A stretch of DNA of 64,000 nucleotides from Psilocybe cubensis. Taxonomy: Eukaryota. Below are positions 47,622 through 61,500 of this stretch, piece after piece. Numbering within the stretch: position 1 is the first letter of the stretch; every line of letters begins with the position of its first letter. The stretch is from positions 1,488,001 through 1,552,000 of the forward strand of contig CM039008.1 of the NCBI GenBank assembly GCA_017499595.2, in the 5' to 3' direction. Under the pieces are notes generated by a model, which was not told the origin of the DNA, did not search any database, and saw only the letters and a program-made list of their open reading frames with translations. Position numbers and translations under genes: made by a program.

Positions 47622-49163
47622 TTACACAACATGCATCGCTTTGCTGCTTTGCTCGCTCTTGTGGGTATAGGCAGATGAGTCAAAAGGTGAATCCGGCTCG
47701 TCATCGCGTTCAAAATGGTTTGCCGAGACTCTGAAAGTAATCGCTGGAATGGGTGTAGGAGAACGTTGGTCGGTCAATTCAAAGGCACTTCCGCCATCGT
47801 CAAGCCATGCCGGCAAAGTACCAAGGCCGGTACCCAGAGTGCTCTTTGATTTAGCGATGTGAACGCGCACAGCTATAAGAACGAAAACAATGCCTGTGAC
47901 GTACAGATATCATTGAGCGGGACAATTTCTGTGCGATGGAAAAGGTTTAAGGGATGACAGTACTCACCTATGCTTGGAACGATGGCAGATTGGACAATAA
48001 ACTGAAAGGTGTTGCTCTTGAAGTACAAAATTATGAGAACAAAGATTTGGAACGTGTAAATCATTGCGCTCTCAATGATGATAAGCAGCACACGTATAAG
48101 ACTGAGCCGAGAACCCCGATCGATAACCCCAGCTGCACTAGAAGCCTTGTGTTGGAGCCATATTTTGAATGTTATCAAGCCCGTTGTCAAAACATTCTGT
48201 ATGAAGGCCAATGGGTAGATGGAGTTGAGTAGCGAAGTCACCAAGTTAATATCTATATGTGTATCGGATGGGTGGGCAAACCAATAGAGAGTGTACGCAT
48301 TGATGCCTAAAATTAGATAGTTAGCATGAGCTACAAGTGACATGCGATTGCATGCAAGCGGCGTACCAACTGTGGCGAGGAAAAGCAACAGAGGTACCAA
48401 GATTACCAAAAGGTTACAGTTCCACACATAATAACACCTGTATATCTGATGAAAGTATACCAAGTACATCAATCAACGGTGTAATAGTTCTACTTGAGGC
48501 ACTCACCACGAGGATATCTCCAAGCCACGACATTGTGCATAACAGTGCATTAGTGACGGCGCTATCCCATCTGGTGAGGTCCCAAAGATACCAAAAAGCG
48601 CCTCTTGGATCAACTCGAAGTATGTATGCCCGAAGACATCGAAAAAGAGCCAGTGCTGATTAAGAGACTGAGGTTAGGGCGCGAGTAGTTGAAATCCCGC
48701 GTGGTTGCGAGATTTTTGAAACCCACCAACGTGAAGCGTGGCCACAATGAACATGAGCATTATGAACACAGAAAAGATCTAGCAGTGAGAAGTCAGCTCA
48801 TTCGTCAGGCCAAGAAACCCACTGCAAGTAAGTCATACCCAAGCGCTGATAGTAGTCCTATTAGCTCTGTTTGACGACCTTCTCTTGAACATCACAGAAA
48901 GGGCAGAGATGAAAAGAGTGACGTAGACGCCTGATATCCATCCGACAGCTTCAGTTGAAATTTGCCAGCCTTCTTGAAGACGAAAACTGGGTCATACCGT
49001 AGAGAAGTAGCTGGAGAGAAAATCCATTGCCGCGATTAGAATTTGAACCGTGTGCCTTGAAAACAACTATCCACACCTCAATCCAGACTGCAAAGGTGAC
49101 GGCGATGTCGAATGGAATGCCTTTCATGACAATTTTGTCGAACTGATGATTTGAGTCCGACAT
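47622..49163 (-). CDS. Uncharacterised multi-pass (7TM-like) membrane protein, paralog C
   Basis: WLGDILVIYRCY, QNVLTTGLITFKIWLQH, IIIESAMIY and IAVRVHIAKSKSTLGTGLGTLPAWLD. Closest to paralog B. Confidence 0.8.
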
Positions 49164-50796
49164 CTTTGGCGGTCGACAGCGAAAAGTAACGACGAGCCTC
49201 TAGCACGAACAAGGAAAACAAAAAAAAATGTGATGCGGCAGCTGGTGCGGGCGACGCCAACATCCTTTTGTATAGATTACCTACGGATACCCTGCTAAGT
49301 ATTCCATGCTGTAGCTCGGTGGAAATAAGAAAAAGGGGTGTTCATTTGCAGCGCGTATCCGCGTACCTATCGGGGTAACGTTCGCAGATAGCCGGTTTGA
49401 TTGATCATGATGCATGATGCCCGATCGCGAGGCAGCCCGACATATTCCCGGATCGGGTTGAGCATGCCTTCTTGGAGAGCTCAAACCTTGACCAACTTCA
49501 ATGACTCTGAAAAATGAGCGCAATCATGACACATATATTTCGGTTCCTATACTACGCACTTTTCACAATAAATTTATCCAACTTGCATCTGTTCCAATTC
49601 GAGTCTGACGGTGAAAACTGCCATTCTCGTGATTTTGGTAGTCGTGGGTCATGACAGCAACACTGTCGTCCAACATCGATGTATTTGTGTTGTATGTACA
49701 GTGCTAGCGCGATTGCATAGTATACATCTCTGCTAATTTGATTGGTTGAAAGCCTCGGCCCGCAATTGAACCCATAAACACTTAAATTGTCTGTTGTACG
49801 GTTGGCGTCTAATTAATTGTAAGAAATTCCGCACAGTGTCACTCTTAACTCGGTTTCATCTTAAAGCACTAAAAAATGGCTTAACAGCCGGTATGCATCC
49901 TGGAATATTCCACTGCAACATAGTAGCAAACTGTCAGTGACGAGCAAGTGACAACCCCGAATTTAACTTTCACAAACCCAACTATCATGGGAGGCTTTGG
50001 AACTCCACCGCGCAATAAGACCTTGGCTAAAGGCACTTAAAAAAAGTGATTATGTTAGAGGTCCATACAGTCTTTTACCTTAAAAAACACACAAAGCAGT
50101 ATAACAGCTCACAATCCTCTTGTCTAATCTTCACTTGTGCAAGCCCTGTTATGTTCATCCTCATTGCTTTGGAAGGCGCAATAAAATGGCATCTTCACAT
50201 ATGAGCAATCAGCTTTTATACCGGCGACTTCCGTAATATTGTACTTATTGTGGTTACCCTGATATGAGGTGACATCTCAGTACTTGCTTTGTCTGCGCTG
50301 CGCTATTATCTAATCCTATCTTTCTGATTTTTTCTATGAACCAGTACTTGTGTGGTTCAGCATTGTTCATGTGCCTAAGTAATTGGTATTACAAGAGCGG
50401 GCACGTCACATTCCTTCAAGAAAATTTCACTTTGCACACTTCAAGCCTCTCGACCAAGCATTTAATATAATACCAGACCAAAATTCTAATTGTTCAAAGA
50501 TATCATAATAATAAGCTATCCTCCATTGGCGGAAGCAAGCCAAACGACAGAAAAGATGCCCAAAGTGCTTCCAGGCTATTTTTAATGTTCCTACATTTAT
50601 CTGTTTGTATATTGTGGCAAACCTGCCTGAGAAAGAATGTGTCCCAAAAACTCAAACTGCATATGACAATGAGTTACAAGCCAGCGCTGTCACTGTCAGT
50701 AGTCCAATGAGCACCGCAGATGCACATTCCCTCCTCTCTACAGCCTAAATGCTTCCAAGAATTCTTTTAATTGCAAGCAAATCACAAACAACTAAG

Positions 50797-53700
50797 CAAG
50801 GGGGTGCCGGTGTTCAAAAAAATAACACGACCTCATATTTTTTATTTCGAGGTAATTTGGGCAACCTACCTACCTCGTGACCATTACATAACGATCAAAA
50901 TCGCCTAAAATGGGAATTGCCAAGGGCCAAGACATTGAACTTCGTCAAAATTCACTCAATTTCCCGACATCGGACAGGTCAAAGTGTAAATAAGTAGTTA
51001 TAGAACTAATAACGACCCCGTTTGCTCCCTTTACATGTGTGGCACACCCATGTCTTTGAGACAGCATGTACGTTAAGGCAGGACAGATGAAACTAAGAGG
51101 TGAACAAAGTGTAACTTATTGAATATCCGAGTCAATAAAAGTCAATGTTAAAAGGCTCACCCAAATGGTCTGACAGTTTCGGCTTTTGCATTGTGCGACA
51201 TTTAATGCATCAGCATCATCCTTTGGCTTCGCAGAGGCACCACAGTCGCAGTAGGAAAGGTCTGTAACATCAAAGTGAGTCCTTTTTCTGTGGGGTCTCA
51301 AAGATGACACTGTTGAATCGGGTAGGCTCGCTGCTGAATCCAACGTTGCAATGTGACTTTCGAGCTCGTTCGAGGCATCCAACAATGCCAATTCATTGTT
51401 TGGGACATGGGAAAGGATGGTGTTCACGTCTGAAACAATAACAGCGTCGCTTTTGTTAGTTTCTGATGACTCATTAATAATACTTTCAGCATCGTGCTAT
51501 GATATGTGTTATCAGTCATTAATTGTGGCAGATGCAAGCTAGCTCCACTCACCGTGACTGTAGCACTTGAATTATCTGTCAAATCGTCCTTGGGATCCTT
51601 GGAATCCTTGAACTCAAGCATGGAATATGCTGTGTTGTATCCTGTATCTTCAAAATCCAAATTGAAAATTGAAAGTTATGTGCTCAACTCACCGAGATCA
51701 GTAGACTCTATCGTGCTTTGATTTGTGTCATTGGGCAGATTTTGAGCTGGCTGACGCTCCAGCTCAGTGTCAGAGTCATAAATCTCTGACAGAGTTACAG
51801 CATCCCTAAAATTTAATGGTCAGATACCCCAAAAGCGTTGGTACACAAAAATTAATGCTCACTGAAGCGAAACGGATTGGGTGGTATGTGCATCCGATAT
51901 AACAAGTCTGTTTTTCTTTGTATTTGCTGGCATTGACCGTTGCTTTGAGGGATTAGAGAAGGTATCCCAAATGCGACGCATCTCCTTCTTTTCAAACATC
52001 GTGAGCTGCCAGAAGTGTGAGTAACGATTAATCGTTGCAGATGGGTGCGATTTAACAATGTGATATCGTAGATTATACCTCCAGACCGCGGGAGCAGTTT
52101 TGTCGCATAAAGGGCAGAATATTGGAACATTAGAACATGGTGCAGACGACGTAGACCTTTCTGCAGGCCCATATTGATACTGGATCGCGTTAGGACACCC
52201 AGTCGACGCCTCCTTGTTTATCCTGATATTACCATTAGCACCCTTCTTCAAGAAAAAGAGACATTGTGGACTAGGACGAAGACATAGGCCACACGGTTCG
52301 TCTTCCCGATTGATATTCAAATCGTGCAGAATATGCGATGCCATATGCTCTAGAATGCGAGGTCCAACCTTTCCTGCAAGTTCAAATGGTGGATCGCAGA
52401 TAGGGCATGCATTCATTACACCACCAGCACCATCAAGGCTGATTGCGGATACGGAAAAACACGCTTTGCCTAGATATAGTGTTAAGATAAAGATGCAATA
52501 TAATAACTTATTGACTCACCTGTTTCCTCGTAATAAGGAAAGTCTGGCGATATAGGGACCATGGCCAACCTCTTTATAAGTTCTGTATCAGCAGAGGAAT
52601 ATAATTGGTCGACCAACGCAACAAGAAAGGTGCCTTCAAGTAGGTAGAACATATGTTCTAAACCTGACGACGAAATTGTTGGATTAAGAGGCAGTATGGC
52701 TTTAGCTGTAACATGAATTGTACGCTCTTGAGCAGGTCGATACGTCCGCCAGTCACATATAAGTGATGGATCATCTGTTTCAATGGAACGACGAAGGCCT
52801 AGAACTGAAATAGAGATAGAAATTCGACCCGGATCGGATTCAGAAATGTCATCCATTGAAATGGCTTCAACCGGCGGCTCAGAGACAATTTTGATGTTGT
52901 TAACTTCACCAATGCACAGAAATATGTGCCCGTCGCACTTGACCAAGGTAGCTACAGGATCTTGAATTGTAAGCAGTTCAGAATCGTCCAACAAGTGGGT
53001 GCATCCACCATTTGATTCTATGGCCTTTGAAAAGCGCTCGGTTCCCTGTACACGTCGCAAGCGATCTGTAGATGCTGGAGCCGCCCTGCCACGAAGTTTA
53101 CTGTGGAGTGAAATAGCCCGCGATTTGGAAACCAGTTTTCCTTGATATATAACACGGCGAGCAAACTTTTTGCCATCAAGAATCGAATACGACATGTATG
53201 AACTTGAACCGTCATCAATGTGTGGCAGCTCGGACTCCAAAAACTCGTCTTCAATAATGGCTTGGTTTTCAGTGAGGCTAGATGGTCCCAAGTCGTCTGT
53301 AGATACGGAGGATTGTTGACGCAAAGCAGACGGTCGTTGAAAAGAGTTAAAACTCTCATCGTCCTGTGCATTGCCCTCCACATTAGACCCGATAAGAGCA
53401 GTTCCGCGTGGTGAAAGAATATTGATATTTGGGCTTGCTTCGAGCTGTGAAAAAATGGAACCAGAAAATGGACAGTCCTTTTCAGCGAGTCTTCGTCCCC
53501 GCTTCCACGCCGTTAATAGAGTAACCTGGTTTACAACAACATTGCCTTTCCATGATGCTGGTTTGATATGGTCGGACGCATCAGGGAGTTCGTGCATTTC
53601 TCGGGTTAGTGCAGGGAGCTTGAGTCGACGAGGTGCTCGATCCCAATGAGGGTACTTGGCCAAAATGTTTGAAACTTGTGTGGTACCCGTTAAACGCGAG

Positions 53701-56700
53701 CCAAGTTGCCAGATATCAAGATTAGCATCGTTTCCCACCATTGTCCGCAAGATTCCAAAGAGTTCCTCGAGACGATCTGTACCCTGAAGAACAATAAAAA
53801 ACGGACACTCTGGTCGATCCACCTTTGCTTTGGCAACACAGAAAAATATGTTCTTGATCATGATCTGCAGATCAGTGTAGAGCAAGGTTGGTATGAATTG
53901 AGAGCCGGATTCATGGAACAAAGCTAGAGCGAGATGTGCAGCAGCACTGAGATGCTCTAGCTGCTCGGAAAGAGTCAAGTCGGTACACAGGTAGGGGAAG
54001 ACAGTATGATAAAACAGTCGTCCAAGGATTACCAATGATGACCGTGCTTCAACAACCGCAGGATTTTTGTGATTAGACAGAGGTGAAAGGTTCCATATGG
54101 CCCTGAGAAGATCAAAGGCAAGTTTAACATCCTGTTCATCATCAGGATTGCATATTGAATTGACATGAATGGCAGGAAGATCCGCCATCTTGAGATGAAC
54201 ACCAATGATTGCAGGTGTTATTCGGAATCCATGTACCAAAACACCACGCGGACGAAGCAAAAGGTTTCGAAACCGCTTGATTACATGCTTCCAGTCCTTG
54301 TCAGCGGTTATATCGTCGGAGCCCACATACAGATCCAGAAATGTCAAGTTAAAGAGTTGTGAATAGATTGGTGATGATGTTGACAGTGGTTTTTGATATG
54401 TCAATAACGACAGCGCTGAGCCACGACGTGTCTCTCCATCTGAGGCAATTGACACCACACGTACTTTTGTTGACAGTTTGTTGCTGCTCACGGAGTTTAT
54501 TAATGTGCGAATTAAATCTGCATGGTCTTCTCCAGTTTCCTGTTTGCAGTCTCCAGAGATAACAATTGGACGTGCAGCATAGACCCGAGTATCCTGGTCC
54601 ATAATTCCAATTGCGCCAACGGTAGCCTATTTATAAACGTGTGTTTTTAAATAGATTTAGAAGAGTCTGTGCGTGGTAAAAACAGTTTTTCTCACCTCAC
54701 GAGCAAAGTGAACCTCTTCGTTATCCAACGACTGAAAAAGCTCCACCATGTCGCTCTCGCTGTTAAATTCAAGTGCTGTTTGTTTTCCATGCTCTCGACA
54801 TACTCCAAGAAACACATTAGTATGGTCATCCCATCGTATCCGACGTTCAACAGCGATCTCATCAAGCTGCAGGTTGGCATGAAGAACATCAACACCAGCA
54901 AGTACGTCTTTAAGGCTTTCGAAACACGCCAAAAGATTTTTTGAGACCTCGGATTCAGTTGGATGAGATGGGGATGGGATTAATGGAGGCATGATTGCAC
55001 GGTTTCGAAGGGTTGTAATTCCAGGAAGTCCCAGTGCACGGTGAGCAATTCCTGCGATACGGCTTCCTCCCAGCTTCATAAGAAGCAGTCCTAACATGTC
55101 ATCGTGCTCCGAAAAACTTTTAGGGCGGTACAAATTCGAGGCGGCAGCTTCGTACATTGATATAATGTAGGGGACACCACGCTTTTGACGAAGAGCAATC
55201 TGAAACAAACGCTCGACATTTCCATACCGCCGACTTGCCACTGCTACCATCAACCGTTTGTGATAGCCCAGGGATGTAGTTTTCCGTAATATTGTGCGTG
55301 CTTGACTGATCCCGCGAAGTTTTAGAAAGCTGATCTTTGTATCCTTCTGCCGCAGCTTAGCCTTCAGACCATTGATGGAGTAGTACGCGTAAGGTGTGTT
55401 GTCGTTAATTCCATGCTCCATACGGTCAATAATCCCCTTTAAGGTTGCGTCTGTCGATAGTTCATGGCATGCTGAGCAGATCCCAAAATGCACAAGACTG
55501 CCAGACTTTTTACAGTGGAAACTGCGCAGCACCATTTGGTTATGTTTGACCTCATAGTTCCACGGTAACGACAGTGTATCGTGAAGGGAAAACGGATATG
55601 TGGAATGCGGAGAATTTCCAGGTGGGATAGGTAATGGGTATCCTTTGCATGCTGCCAATGTGTTGCTAATTGAGTTGGCGGCAGGGGTACGAGGTACAAA
55701 ATTGACAGGCTGGGGCCTAGGACTTGTATTCAAGCTAATAGCAGATTCAAGTGGCATGTCAATATCAATGACTGAGCGGGTGCTACTTTGGAATCAAGGT
55801 AAGTATTGTGCTTTTACAGTTATATTAGAAAATGAATGCGCACGTTAATTGTCTGTCTCGCAAAGCTGACATTAAATGTCCTAGTTTTCCTTCAAACAAG
55901 GCTTCGTCTACCCGGCGACAAACCACAAAAAATTCCACGAAGGGTGCGAGACCATTTAATCCATCCCTATTCCCTCTCACTATCGCTTCAACATCAAGCT
56001 CGGTTCCCCACCCCAAAATGTCCTTCAAGAGCGGGTTCAAGACTTCTTCCCACAGGTCCTCATCGCTAACCAATGGATTATTGTAGTTTGATGGGTCTGT
56101 ATGGAATGCGGAAAGGATATTATCCGCTAATGCTATATCCGTGCTTGGGGGTGGTAAGCCATCTACTAGTGTTTGGAGCGCATTGGCTAGATTTGACTTA
56201 AACCATTTGACAGTTGGCGCACACGATGGTTCTGGGGTTACAGAGGGAGGCGGCTGGCTCAGAACATTGTCGGTTGTTGTAGTCTCGCAAAGTGGAGTGT
56301 CTTTGGGTAGGATTACTGGAAGAGTTGTTGTAGTAGGTACACGAGCTAATGCTGGTCCTCGTTTCATAAAAAAACCTTTGAGTGACGAGTCCTTCAACTT
56401 CGCCTTCGTGGATAGCTTTGCTGCTGCGGCTTTACATTTGGCTGTTCCTCGATGGCGTAGATTTAGGTTCTTTGATCCTCCGGGACCACACTTAATAGCC
56501 TTTTGGCAGTCAGGGCAGATTGCGTACCCATCCGCATCAACTGGAATATCTTCTTGTGGGTCTTCACCCGCATTCTTTGCTTTATATTAGTATGCATGGG
56601 TGATAAAAATAGGTATATGCCACATACCACGTTAATTGAGCTCATTAATGACAGCTAGTGATTGTAGGGTTGCCGATGAAACAGATTGAGCAATCGTCCA

Positions 56701-57004
56701 GATGGTAAATCAATGATCTCAGTCAAAATCAGGTCAAATATCTGTGTTTCTTGAAGCCCGGCCACCTATCATGAAGATTTCAACCTAAATTTCAACGAGA
56801 TTGGTATTGTGTTTGTTTAAAAAACATAATTTGTCTATAAAATACAGTCCAAAATGCTCCAAACTTGATCACAGACAACTTTGGACCGTGAAATTCCTCA
56901 GAAATTAGACAAAAAAAATATGGTACATTTTTTTTTTTTCGGGGCTGATCGGCCAACCTACCTACCTAGGTGGTGTCCGAATTTTGAACACCGGCACCCC
57001 CTTG
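50797..57004 (-). mobile_element. Autonomous cut-and-paste DNA transposon, P-element-like, 6,208 bp
   Basis: Perfect 23-bp TIRs CAAGGGGGTGCCGGTGTTCAAAA (50797-50819 and 56982-57004), flanked by an identical 8-bp TSD CAACTAAG (50789-50796 and 57005-57012). Contains one long spliced transposase gene. Confidence 0.93.
51006..56645 (-). CDS. DDE transposase with P-element-type motifs, zinc fingers and C-terminal PHD finger (~1,700 aa, about 9 exons)
   Basis: Exons join in frame through GT-AG introns. Motifs: CPDC..H..C, LQLDEIAV, VVSIASDG, DKDWKHVIKRFRN, DEQDVKLAFDLL, GTDRLEELFGILRTMVGND, C2H2-like fingers, and CDC...CKSRNCQTIW|FHLSC...WVCHTC. Confidence 0.8.
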
Positions 57005-58512
57005 CAACTAAGTAAAAATAGGGCATGTAAAGCCATCAACAAAATTGACTTCAGCATATGTGGGGCTCCTGAGGTTGTTTGGTAATTGGCTGCATAAAAT
57101 CTTTATGACATAGAGCTTTCAATAGAAAAATTGAAGGATGGATCATGTGGTTGCGTTTGATAAATGGAATCTACACTCCATGGGAAACTGCAAACACACA
57201 CTTTGGCAGAGCTAATGTAAGTGCTGATTTTACTAGTCATTATTAAAGGAGTATTGCGCATTTTTGATTGTTGATCAACAAGAAGTTTCTTGTGCACATT
57301 TAACAAAGGGCGTGTAGGGTGAGTTACACACCTTCTTCACGCAGATATTAGCCCCTAGGATTTTCCCCAATGGTGCTCTGACATTGATCAACCCTTGCTA
57401 TTGGTCCTAGGCACATTGAAATATCCAGAAAATGGGTTTAAAAACAAAAACCCCAAATATATATGCACTAAGGGGCGCGGTGGCTCAGGAGGCACCATTG
57501 CGTACTTAACCCTAGGCTGATGGTTAGGACGCAAGTTCAAACCTCGCCGGTTGCATGGATAAAACAATTTAGACACCATGTGACTTTTCAACGCCACTCA
57601 GGTGATACCGGGCACTGATTTGGGGATCCGCTAGGAAGGCTTTAAGAATGCTTTTGCAGCAAAGCGGCCAAACAGGACGTATCTATGCCCCCCAGTGCGA
57701 TGACAACATGGTAGCTCTATTTACCTTTGTTTCTAAAAAGGGAGCAATGCCGAAGAGGGAGGACTGGGAGGTTTGGAACAAGCACAAAAGTAATGGCCTG
57801 ATGGCCAAGACGGCTAAAGCCGGCCCCCGACTGCAAGACCATTCAGTACCAAAGGGTAGGACAGAACCCACGGGCGGAGATGGCTAAAGCCAACCCAAAG
57901 AAGACTTTGGACAAGTCAGTCAGGTTGCTATGGGCTCTCTTCAGTCAACTGCCGAATAAAGGGGATGCACACTGATCACTACTGCCGGCAACAGCTCCAC
58001 AAGGGTGTGCCAGACTGACTGCACATATGGAAAAGGACTGGGAGTAGAGGGAGTACAGGGATCATTGGAACTCCGCCTGTCACAAGGCTGCACTATGTCT
58101 AGTAAAAAGATGCACGGGATGTAACATTAAAAGAGGATGGAGTCTGGGACACTTAATATAGTACTTAGGTCACGCCCACTCGTACCGATAGGAGGTAATA
58201 CTACCATCATGTAAGAGCCACTATTGATCAATACCAACTCATTCAACAAAAAAAAACAATATATGCACTGCGGGAGAAAAGGCAAGCCCTGGCGCAGATT
58301 AGATTAGATTGATTGAACATAATTATCCAAGTCACATGCGTCATACTTCCAAGATCGTCAAGAGGGTGCAATTGGCCAGACGGACTTGTGTCTTCCACGT
58401 TCCTTTCACCTTGTGTTAACAGTCTGTTTATTATCCACTTCTTGTTTGTGTACTAATATCTCCTTTCATTTTCTTTCTCCTTTCATTTATTTCCTTTATA
58501 CTCCCGGAAAGA

Positions 58513-61500
58513 ATGAGCGAAACGACCGAATCTTCACCGTCTGTACATTTTCATCCAATGTCCCCATCGTCTTCCTTTTCTTCGACGGATTCAGCACCGC
58601 GATCAGAGCCCACATCGGACGAGCAACCAGATTTGGGTGCATTTACCACTGTTCTGAGGGAATGGACTCACTTGCAGCCTATACAAAGGATTCCAGTTCA
58701 AATTCATTCAGCGACGAGTTCGACAACACCGACTTATCAGCCAGAGCAGAGCATTGCAGGCAGCGACTATAGACCTCGAAATTCCAGTAGCAGGCGCAGC
58801 AGGCTTAGCTCCAGAGGAGGATTCAGCGATATCTCCTCGTTTACTCGACCTCCAAGCAGCAGTGTACAGCCCGAAGGATCGACTGTCTGGAATCAGGAAC
58901 TGATTGCGTCGTATCTACACAGTACCACTCCGAGCAACGAAATTCTAAGCGAGGCAGATGACGAAGAGGATGGAGGAGAAGGAGAAACCTACGGAGAGCA
59001 AGAATATACCCCGTCCCCGCCGAACTCTTTGGCATCCACAGCTCTGACTGTTGAAATCGCTTCAGAAATCGATTTTCCGTCTTTTGATGGATCGCATGAT
59101 TCTCGTGCAGACCACCTTGATCCTACTCCTTCTCCCTATGTTTTAGACCCAGGGATTGTAAGGGCGATTGCTGTTGAAAGTGATGGGCAGCGGCTAGATT
59201 CCAGGGAAACTGCTCACCCTGAAGACGAGACAGAGGATGGAGAAGCACCATCAAATCATGGCGACAGTTCTTCACAGACATCCAGGGATTATGTACGATC
59301 AACGTTTCGTGATATGACTTACCCATCTTCTGCCTCGCAAAGCCATACTGGATCGCAACAAACTAGTGTTCAGTTGCTATCACAAGCTCGGGCACACTCT
59401 ACCACCGGAGCATCGTCATCGGACTCACTTGCACTCTTCCACGCAACATCTGGCTCTCCAAATGCTGCACCGTCAGTTTCATTGAGCTCAGTTTCACATC
59501 CTTATTCGTCGCATAGTAACAACAACACCACTTCTAATTCTTCTACATCAACATCAACTTTAATTAGTGCTTTGCTAAACCGAAGTCGGAACCCCTTGCC
59601 TCCCCGCACAACGTCCGATTCCTCAATTACCACAAGCAATTCTGCCTCTTCTTCCAATTTTTCTCTATTATCTTACCAGATCCCTGAAACCCCTCCCATT
59701 GAAGAGGAGTCGGATTCCGAGCCAAGGCTCAACGAGGAGCACTCATCGAACTCTCATCATAATATATCCAGCGACCCATTTTCGTCGAACCAGAGTATAC
59801 CTTCGACATCTAGCTCAGTCTCATTGAAGAGCCAGAGATCGATGCATTCTTCTGAGCATTCCAACACTCTCAGTTCGTCTACATCGACCCAGACTCAGGT
59901 TCATCAGAGACTTTCAGTACCATCCTCTATGTCACACATATCGCCTGCCACCCGATCTGACTTATCTCTTCCAAATCCCCACTCTCCCTCTCCGGCTCAC
60001 CAGCGAGACTTGCCGTCTGGATTGAATCATTCAGTGCAGCCACCAACCAACAAATGGGGCACCATTCCTGTTAGGGAGTTTGGTGTGGTAGATGACTTAG
60101 GTACCCCAGATCAACCCCCTTCGGAAACCTTTTTGTTTGATCCAAGTCAGCAAAGACGAAAAGAGTTTCTCCCTGTGGACGACATCGACGACGAAGAAGA
60201 CGACATCGACAAACCTCTATTATCTGTTCGTACCCCAAAATTTTCTTACTCCCAGGATTCTCCAAAAGCACCCACTGCGCAAGCTTCAAGTCACGCCCAA
60301 GTATATGGTATTTTCGTTTCCCCCCCTTTCTCAAGTTATCTAGCATTAATCTTTATCTTTCTGTCGTAGATCGGCCGGGTCCATCTTCAATTCGCGTACA
60401 ACCGTCTGCTTTTTCTGACAGACCTCACCTTGAGCCACAAGATGAAGACGACGACGAAGCCGAGGACGATTATCCGTATCGTTATCCCTATGCTCATACC
60501 CCGAAATCTAATGCGCAGGCCTTGACACCAAAGGGAATTTTGCATGTTGACTCGCAAGCACCTTTGCGAAGAATTGTACAACCAGAAACCATTGCTTCTC
60601 AAGCTCAGATCCGGCAATATCCTAGACAATTCGACCTTCCCTCTTCCAGTCATTCACAACGCTCTGTTCAAAAATCGGCCCAAATCTTACAACATTCTCA
60701 GACCACACATGAAGAGCCTGTCTTTACGCATGTCCAACCAGTTGTTGCATCCCAGTCACATCCTCAACCACGAAAACAAAACGAATTAAAACCTTGGTCT
60801 GGCCTGACACAACCGATTCCATCATCCTCACAATATCCTCCGCTACGTACAGACCATTCAAGTAGTCATCGGCATCTAGCAGCGCCCGCTCCCGTCATGG
60901 AATCATCGTCGAAGGATGAATTTTCGTCATCAACGCAACGCCACAGATATCCCCACTCACTGTTAGGATTGCATGAACTCCCGTCATCACTCGGTCCGGC
61001 CGAGACACAGGAGCTGTCTCGCTATCCGTACAAATCTAGCGTAATCTCGCCATCGTCTCAAGAAATTGAAAACGAACATAGACCTTTGGTTGAGATGGAC
61101 TCGACTGAAGCTCTACACCACGGTCCGGATGACGACACTGAGTCAGAACAGCCACTACCTTCGCTTGGCTACCTTGATGAAGCGCTCAGTTTTATTGCTG
61201 CTGAAAGGGCGAGATGGAATGCTGCGAGAGAGGGCCCTGGATCGACAAGCGCTAGCGTTGCTTTGGATACGGATGCCACTGACTCGCGAGAAGTTGGTGG
61301 CGGAGACGGTGCTGCAATTGGATCTGGAGAAGAGGAAGCAGGCAAACAAGTAATAGGTAAGTCTGTCATTCATTTTGAATTTTTTTTCACCTCCGCTCTT
61401 TCGATTTTCTTCACTTCTTCTTTCATTTCTTCATCAAATGACACCGTCTGTCAAATTGATCGACCAACAGTTGAATACTATCTCTATAGATAACGGGCAA

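Follow-up and report, generated by a model that had tools for sequence, protein, structure and literature searches.

A P-like DNA transposon of Psilocybe cubensis with a predicted ING-like PHD finger at the end of its transposase

Introduction

The transposases of P elements are built from a THAP domain, a leucine zipper, a helix-turn-helix, an RNase H domain with a GTP-binding insertion, plus a C-terminal domain that is acidic, and the THAP domain is limited to animals (PMC7776569). A PHD finger is not among the parts described in the accessible text of that account, which also gives P elements terminal inverted repeats of about 30 nt and a target duplication of 8 bp (PMC7776569). Here we describe, in 64,000 nt of the Psilocybe cubensis genome (assembly GCA_017499595.2, contig CM039008.1, positions 1,488,001 to 1,552,000; this whole stretch is called the window, and all positions are counted within it), a 6208-bp element that has ends of the same kind, and whose predicted transposase appears to belong to the P superfamily and to end in a PHD finger of the ING type.

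Integrating enzymes that end in a reader-type domain occur elsewhere. Chromoviruses, Ty3/gypsy elements of fungi and plants, have an integrase ending in a reader of histone marks, and the present element would resemble them in this respect, but they are retrotransposons and their reader is a chromodomain rather than a PHD finger. In the RAG1/RAG2 recombinase, too, a cut-and-paste enzyme of the RNase H type goes together with an acidic hinge and a PHD finger at a C-terminus, and the finger of RAG2 meets histone H3 trimethylated at lysine 4 (H3K4me3; PMC12337333). However, the RAG finger sits on a separate subunit, and the enzyme is of Transib descent (fold Z about 7 in our comparison) and domesticated, whereas here all parts lie in one polypeptide of a mobile element. 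PHD or PHD-like fingers have further been described on the DNA transposases of Rehavkus (PMC6446971) and piggyBac (PMC5861402). These differ from the present case in that Rehavkus is of the Mutator-like superfamily with a 9-bp duplication, and piggyBac is of another superfamily again, with a finger that binds DNA and has a different ligand order; neither finger is reported as ING-like in the accessible parts of the two papers. Within the literature covered, PHD transposases therefore have a precedent in Rehavkus, and none in the P superfamily.

Results

Gene model and last splice

Nine minus-strand exons, joined by their coordinates (56645-56628, 56574-55844, 55782-54696, 54626-52520, 52469-51863, 51805-51693, 51641-51553, 51496-51161 and 51092-51006), give 5175 bases, a multiple of three, with a sole stop at the end, and thus a protein of 1724 aa. 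The eight introns are all of the GT..AG type and 50-69 nt long. Five of them fall in 52600-50900 (52519-52470, 51862-51806, 51692-51642, 51552-51497 and 51160-51093), with GTGAG 5' sites, YAG 3' sites and lengths of 50-68 nt. The parts of the model that bear on its C-terminus are the following:

56643..56645, minus strand: start codon of the model, shared with the public model P0001
51161..51496, minus strand: exon 8, with the end of the acidic linker, the basic patch HRKR and the first half of the PHD finger, by reading of the spliced frame
51093..51160, minus strand: intron 8, 68 nt, GTGAGC..TCTTAG, phase 0, splitting the W/FH motif of the PHD finger
51006..51092, minus strand: last exon, with the second half of the PHD finger (FH..C..C-x2-C), a basic tail and the stop codon, by the splice model
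51033..51250, intron included, minus strand: PHD finger, C4HC3, residues 1667-1716

The original prediction, made from the sequence alone, held that the last two exons splice to a complete C4HC3 finger which the list of open reading frames hides, since an intron splits W/FH. Both statements stand as far as the DNA itself can show. Exon 8 ends in ...NVAQCKSRNCQTIW (CKSRNCQTIW), the intron follows the Trp codon, and the last exon adds FHLSCLNVHAVSKTWVCHTCKGSKRGRY and the stop, so that the open 1724-aa frame holds at residues 1667-1716 the pattern C-x-C-x17-C-x4-C-x5-H-x2-C-x11-C-x2-C, with the stop codon 8 codons past the last Cys of the finger.

P0001, a public uncharacterized protein of 1615 aa from P. 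cubensis that is 100% identical over the large exon, reads through the same place: it retains the last intron, ends in ...QTIWVSLLTLTFIDSDIQ and has no second half of the finger. It further drops 95 conserved residues, among them one of the upstream fingers, CPLC (51863-52147). By contrast with this model, P0002, a paralogue from the same species (63% identical over the large exon), has a complete finger annotated across the same junction. A hidden Markov model (HMM) for which 23 PHD fingers from the rest of the family were used gives 66.8 bits to the spliced C-terminus, 33.7 to the unspliced P0001, and 9.2 to the best of 200 shuffles. Among the homologue models that hold only the first half of the finger, 6 of 15 have a Val (GTx) right after the Trp, as would be left by reading through a GT intron. 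The position of intron 8 thus appears conserved in the homologues, and read-through of the intron within the finger appears to be a recurring annotation error in public gene models.

The finger resembles those of the ING family

ING-type fingers are readers of the histone H3 tail. An alignment of 24 family fingers from 23 proteins has 13 columns kept in at least 90% of them (C-x-C-G, C, C-E-T-x-W-x-H-x2-C and W-x-C-x2-C), and all zinc-ligand columns are among those kept at this level. Searched against the PDB, a profile of 28 full-length family members finds Pho23 (E-value 1.8e-10), Yng2 (4.7e-7) and Png2 (6e-7), further matches to ING1-5 (1.2e-5 to 5.9e-4; with Yng1 included, 1.2e-5 to 1.5e-3), and then ASH1L at 0.059. 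Among the same 28 members, five match the Pfam model PF23011, at best with E 2.3e-5. The ING-like character that had been proposed from the ligand spacing is therefore supported by the family profile.

As in the PHD fingers of Pho23, Yng1, Yng2, Png2 and ING1-5, there is a C-x-C start, a C-x5-H with Trp two before the His, and a W-x-C-x2-C end; the finger is likewise C-terminal with basic residues after it, the tail being KR-rich in most members. It departs from them in a longer loop between Cys2 and Cys3, in the residue before Cys1, in an invariant Gly after Cys2, in the sequence C-E-T, and in being attached to a transposase rather than to a subunit of a histone acetylase or deacetylase. The Tyr before Cys1 and the Trp before His we take to be the aromatic cage pair with which ING2 holds trimethyl-lysine. 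This Trp is kept in 24 of 24 family fingers, but the Tyr, which Pho23, Yng2 and Png2 show in the profile alignments, in only 1 of 24. A search for a cellular donor of the finger gave ten candidates among shorter proteins, none at E<=0.01.

Distribution of the family and of the finger

The homologues considered are 120 of the 170 matches of a word-based search, each at least 1251 aa long. Among these 120, all hosts listed are mushroom-forming fungi, with many diverged copies per genome; we place their genera in the Agaricales, Russulales, Boletales and Auriculariales. An exhaustive search yields 1866 clusters (50% identity) at E<=0.001, 542 of them at 1e-30, which suggests that the family is large in Agaricomycetes; the representatives examined were the best 150 of the 1866, all at E<=1e-78.

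A whole C4HC3 finger is found in 22 of the 120 homologues, 0-29 residues from the C-terminus (one has a second copy further in), and the first half alone in 14-15 more, so that the finger is shared by other copies and not confined to the one in the window. The models of at least 1550 aa (n = 63) divide into 20 with the whole finger, 11 with half of it and 32 with neither by pattern. On inspection by eye, 14 of these 32 have pieces of the finger in their last 70 residues (P0004, P0009, P0014, P0028, P0057, P0066, P0072, P0075, P0084, P0091, P0093, P0099, P0104 and P0120), and the other 18 have none. A further 134 representatives, 99 of which are fragments shorter than 1000 aa, add two whole fingers and six halves, with none in 126. 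Since it is present both in Agaricales and in Lactarius, the finger is old in the family.

The literature covered contains no description of this P-like lineage of mushrooms, nor of a P element with a PHD finger in Basidiomycota, an entry in Repbase or in a supplement remaining possible. A survey of fungal cut-and-paste elements by Pfam domains, as far as its text is accessible, cites P elements in Repbase from Pucciniales and Allomyces alone, and its own count was 11 copies (PMC5751038); so low a count fits the failure of the Pfam models on this lineage.

The transposase core is of the P kind

The core is encoded for the most part by one large exon:

56434..56517, minus strand: N-terminal zinc finger, C-x2-C-x17-H-x5-C, not THAP by Pfam
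54828..54872, minus strand: motif LQLDEIAVERRIRWD of exon 3, with the first catalytic Asp, the place of weak PF21787 matches
52520..54626, minus strand: large exon 4, with the remaining RNase H-like core, a helical insertion domain and a barrel, by alignment and fold model
54420-54452, minus strand: second Asp, SIASDGE, in exon 4, the Asp invariant in the family
53745-53783, minus strand: D-x-x-E motif, GTDRLEE, in exon 4, near-invariant in the family

An AlphaFold2 (AF2) model of the 714-aa exon (52482-54626, minus strand; 52 sequences, no templates) has a mean predicted local distance difference test score (pLDDT) of 80.4 and a predicted template modelling score (pTM) of 0.80. At E<=0.001, Foldseek matches this model to two structures only, 6p5a_A (1.5e-4) and 6pe2_A (2.5e-4), and both are the strand transfer complex of the Drosophila P element transposase. 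VIA-align, run against 48161 representative chains, superposes residues 1-328 of the model on 254-569 of 6p5a_A with Z 19.4 and a root-mean-square deviation of 3.9 over 285 residues; the runners-up reach Z 6.3-7.0 and comprise RAG-like, RAG1, Hermes, Transib and ISCth4 chains. The D-x-x-E motif (D284/E287 of the exon) fits the pair D528/E531 of the P enzyme in the numbering of PMC7776569, and the invariant Asp of S-x-A-S-D-G-E fits its second Asp. The first Asp is marked by Pfam, albeit faintly: the window exons match only PF21787 (TNP-like RNase H N-terminal; E 0.19), and the same model matches 15 of 28 full-length relatives at E<=1, at best with 8.4e-4 and always at L-x-F-D-E-I, the first-Asp motif.

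The fold match at Z 19.4, the 8-bp target duplication and the terminal inverted repeats together settle the predicted kind, as originally proposed: by its modelled fold and its ends, and not by Pfam definition, the element is a member of the P superfamily. Other kinds had been considered for their 8-bp duplications. Against hAT and Transib/RAG, the fold match to P lies 12 Z units above those to Hermes and Transib; for Zisupton/KDZ, no KDZ Pfam match is present in the window exons or in the 28 members.

The P enzyme has 751 residues, and the present protein is more than twice as long. With the Drosophila P element transposase and THAP9 it shares the RNase H core with an all-helical insertion domain and the D-x-x-E motif, as well as an acidic region past the core as in P elements. 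It differs from both in having a C2HC finger instead of THAP, an additional barrel, zinc module and PHD finger, and Pfam P models that stay below threshold. That such an architecture is atypical of described P elements, as the original prediction had it, agrees with the accessible list of their parts, where no PHD finger is given (PMC7776569).

The element is intact and recently mobile

The boundaries of the element are given by its repeats:

50797..57004, gene on minus strand: whole element, 6208 bp, bounded by inverted repeats and target duplication
50789..50796, strandless: left copy of the target site duplication CAACTAAG, 8 bp, identical to 57005-57012
57005..57012, strandless: target site duplication CAACTAAG, right-hand copy, 8 bp
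50797..50833, plus strand: left terminal inverted repeat, its first 23 nt equal to the right end
56968..57004, minus strand: right terminal inverted repeat, paired with the left end
50862..50875, plus strand: subterminal 14-nt motif CAACCTACCTACCT, copy 1, from a motif search of the window
56954..56967, plus strand: subterminal 14-nt motif CAACCTACCTACCT, copy 2, from the same search

The inverted repeat arms (50796-50833 and 56968-57005) are 38 nt long and 84% complementary, and the outermost 23 nt, CAAGGGGGTGCCGGTGTTCAAAA, are perfectly identical between the two ends, with two matches in the window against 0 expected. The motif CAACCTACCTACCT also has two matches in the 64-kb window, both on the plus strand, against 0.01 expected, and they lie 66 and 38 nt inward of the two ends, an unequal spacing; this subterminal repeat is possibly a binding site of the transposase.

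Contigs from two public runs, X1 and X2 (one contig each), join 50788 to 57005 and skip 6216 bases. Exactly 8 letters fit either side of this joint, as expected of an empty site with a single copy of the duplication. Contigs of both runs also contain deletion joints, 50939 to 56228 and 51064 to 56695/56696, at depths above that of the element's inside. Read depth in X1 and X2 is about 620 at the element's ends against 32 inside, and loose contig ends leave 57004-57006 into unrelated sequence. The kind of these runs is not on record; introns and intergenic flanks are present in them, so that they are DNA-like. The best-matching run may be the assembly's own sample, in which case it does not corroborate the sequence independently; what is new in it are the empty site and the deleted copies.

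Further insertions and shorter, internally deleted copies thus exist beside the full-length element, the latter of about 0.6-0.9 kb and probably non-autonomous, as P elements also have internally deleted derivatives. Given the empty site, the deleted forms and the further insertions in X1 and X2, the element is an intact, autonomous-looking cut-and-paste DNA transposon that has been mobile recently.

The nearest long open frames flanking the insertion, 47873-48472 (minus strand, a hydrophobic 199 aa) and 58420-60369 (plus strand, a Ser-rich 649 aa), point away from it, so that a pair of diverging genes may flank this copy, as judged at this one site from open frames only. Just outside the element, 57308-57800 has high depth in X1 and X2, with contig breaks at 57468-57472, and 57478-57800 is the sole stretch matched by a contig of X4, a run guessed to be RNA; this region is either another repeat or an expressed gene.

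The extension between core and finger

Three further parts separate the catalytic core from the PHD finger:

52602..52976, minus strand: beta-barrel between catalytic core and zinc module, exon residues about 548-668, pLDDT mostly >90
51865..52467, minus strand: zinc module, read over 201 aa and folded at about residues 20-170, AF2 pLDDT 86.7, pTM 0.77
52333-52407, minus strand: CPIC..H-x4-H finger, residues 1336-1360
52261-52293, minus strand: CGLC..C finger, residues 1374-1384
52045-52137, minus strand: C-x6-CPLC..H-x5-H finger, residues 1426-1456
51293..51804, minus strand: acidic, Ser/Thr/Asn-rich linker, 135 aa, in three exons with two introns inside the coordinates

Among PDB structures, the barrel comes closest to those of BAH, Tudor, chromo, PWWP and KOW domains, with Z 4.5-5.4, weak scores in a range that the tool calls common, and a language-model search for look-alikes of the barrel gave no usable match. 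The barrel may serve as a second reader, or be no more than an SH3-like barrel.

The extra zinc fingers of the original prediction fared partly well. CPIC, CGLC and CPLC are all present, and the Cys/His columns of the module are near invariant in 47 sequences; but the model puts them in a single compact predicted domain of about 150 aa, and not in three classical fingers. The PDB holds no look-alike of it by either method used (VIA-align best Z 2.1 of 48161 chains, Foldseek best E 3.0), which makes the module a candidate new zinc-binding fold. Past it follow the acidic linker, the basic patch HRKR, the PHD finger and the basic tail, and the linker is as acidic as had been anticipated, with 27 D+E against 6 K+R, and 45 S+T+N.

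Discussion

What explains these data best, and is in our judgement likely, is an intact autonomous transposon of the P superfamily with a conserved ING-type PHD finger that would bind the H3 tail and so tether or license the transposase on chromatin. The element's ends would be bound by the N-terminal zinc finger together with the stretch that precedes the core; the D-D-E core would cut the element out and join it to target cuts with an 8-bp stagger; and the PHD finger, on its flexible acidic linker, would bind the nucleosomal H3 N-terminal tail. Such binding would tether the transposase to particular chromatin, or license it there, a role like that which RAG2's PHD finger has for RAG1/2.

The separate parts of this reading deserve separate weights. 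That the finger binds the H3 tail in any state we hold to have slightly better than even chances, and that it binds methylated H3K4 specifically is possible but on balance doubtful. The fullest version, in which a large and still active P lineage of mushrooms, invisible to Pfam surveys, would carry on its single-chain transposase an acidic hinge followed by a reader of methylated H3K4 of the ING type (the barrel perhaps being a further reader), and would so have reinvented in cis and independently the chromatin gate of RAG2, steering or licensing insertion, can be offered only tentatively and is rather unlikely as a whole. The original prediction had also proposed that the element may choose its targets or escape silencing by way of histone marks; such roles are conjectural.

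Several observations pull the other way. As to the P kind, the core fold model goes without the first RNase H strands, which are encoded in the preceding exon, and the PF21787 scores (13.4-18 bits in the tables seen) all lie below the 24.6-bit cut-off. Neither of the Pfam P-element models, PF12017 and PF12596, matches the window exons or the 28 members, PF21787-9 have no significant match, and the 28-member profile finds no P element chain among PDB sequences at E<=10. A THAP domain is likewise absent by Pfam from the window exons and the 28 members, although with THAP confined to animals it may not define P members outside them.

As to the finger, the general Pfam PHD model PF00628 matches 6 of 28 members, at best with E 0.021; by pattern, 84 of the 120 homologue models have no PHD finger, 52 of these being shorter than 1550 aa. 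The residue before Cys1 is Tyr in 1 of 24 fingers, the window's copy alone (A in 6, Q in 5, E in 3, D and G in 2 each, the rest once each), and the Cys2-Cys3 loop is at least 6 residues longer than in ING fingers; for these two reasons the reading of methyl-lysine is uncertain. No RNA run is listed for the stretch that would support the splice, and of X4 and X5, the runs guessed to be RNA, neither has a contig over the element, X4 matching only at 57478-57800. Finally, a single insertion site was seen, which carries no information on target preference.

Other roles for the finger have to be weighed against tethering. The PHD finger and the acidic linker may form a regulatory gate and no targeting device: they would fold back on the transposase and hold up target capture or cleavage for as long as no histone tail pushes them away, as described for the non-core PHD finger and hinge of RAG2. 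The order of parts is the same as in RAG2 (an acidic stretch, here 135 aa with 27 D+E, then HRKR and a C-terminal PHD finger), and in RAG2 the PHD finger together with the hinge inhibits binding of target DNA, with H3K4me3 peptides releasing this inhibition (PMC12337333, accessible part). This is, however, pure analogy with a separate subunit of a Transib-like enzyme (RAG1, Z about 7) that is not P-like, and histone binding would still be required; we regard a gate of this kind as unlikely, if worth keeping in mind.

A cross-brace finger might instead bind DNA, such as sites in the element's own ends, which we consider improbable. The C-terminal cysteine-rich domain of piggyBac, also a cross-brace finger, recognises a specific DNA sequence (PMC5861402), some PHD fingers bind DNA, the HRKR patch and the basic tail flank the finger, and CAACCTACCTACCT offers a candidate protein-binding site at both ends. 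But the profile matches the histone-reading fingers of the ING family, and both have in common a C-x-C start, a W-[YF]-H core and a W-x-C-x2-C end; the ligand order of piggyBac is another, C5HC2 (PMC5861402); and it is more usual for the ends to be bound by the N-terminal finger.

Slightly less probable still is that the partner of the finger is not a histone, or that the finger just helps the protein to fold or to enter the nucleus, with no role in the landing site. The cage Tyr kept in only 1 of 24 fingers would agree with this, as would the KR-rich basic tail of most members and the invariant C-E-T before the Trp, for which we know of no counterpart in ING fingers. However, that the finger and its Trp are so strongly conserved across orders of mushrooms argues for a specific ligand, and ING-type fingers are known as readers of the H3 tail.

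It is very improbable that the last exon is unused, with mRNA ending as in P0001 and a protein left with half a finger: P0001 does read through the intron, and no RNA run was found, but the intron is canonical (GTGAGC..YAG), the frame is kept with the stop 8 codons past the last Cys, the spliced end scores 66.8 bits against 33.7 for read-through, and in 22 models of homologues this splice is used and the finger is complete. That the locus is a domesticated, immobile host gene of transposase origin is hardly credible: the protein is very long and has chromatin-type domains, as some domesticated transposases do, but the intact ends, the target duplication, the exact empty site, the deleted derivatives, the many copies of the ends, and the many diverged copies per relative genome speak against it, and the empty-site and deletion joints refute it for the window's copy unless they are assembly artefacts.

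We are thus left with a mobile P-superfamily element whose finger would engage the H3 tail. The architecture of this lineage, a conserved ING-type PHD finger together with a zinc module that has no look-alike among solved structures, is solid, as is its conservation, and its role in reading histones is putative. Choice of chromatin, as a question for DNA transposons, is known mostly from retroelements and from the domesticated RAG recombinase, and a natural, apparently active cut-and-paste element with a histone-reader-type finger on its transposase would offer a testable model of chromatin-guided or chromatin-gated transposition, and possibly a source of chromatin-aware insertion tools. For the fungi themselves, since this lineage escapes the Pfam models, P-type elements have been undercounted, and would be far commoner than the Pfam-based survey reported in its accessible text (PMC5751038).

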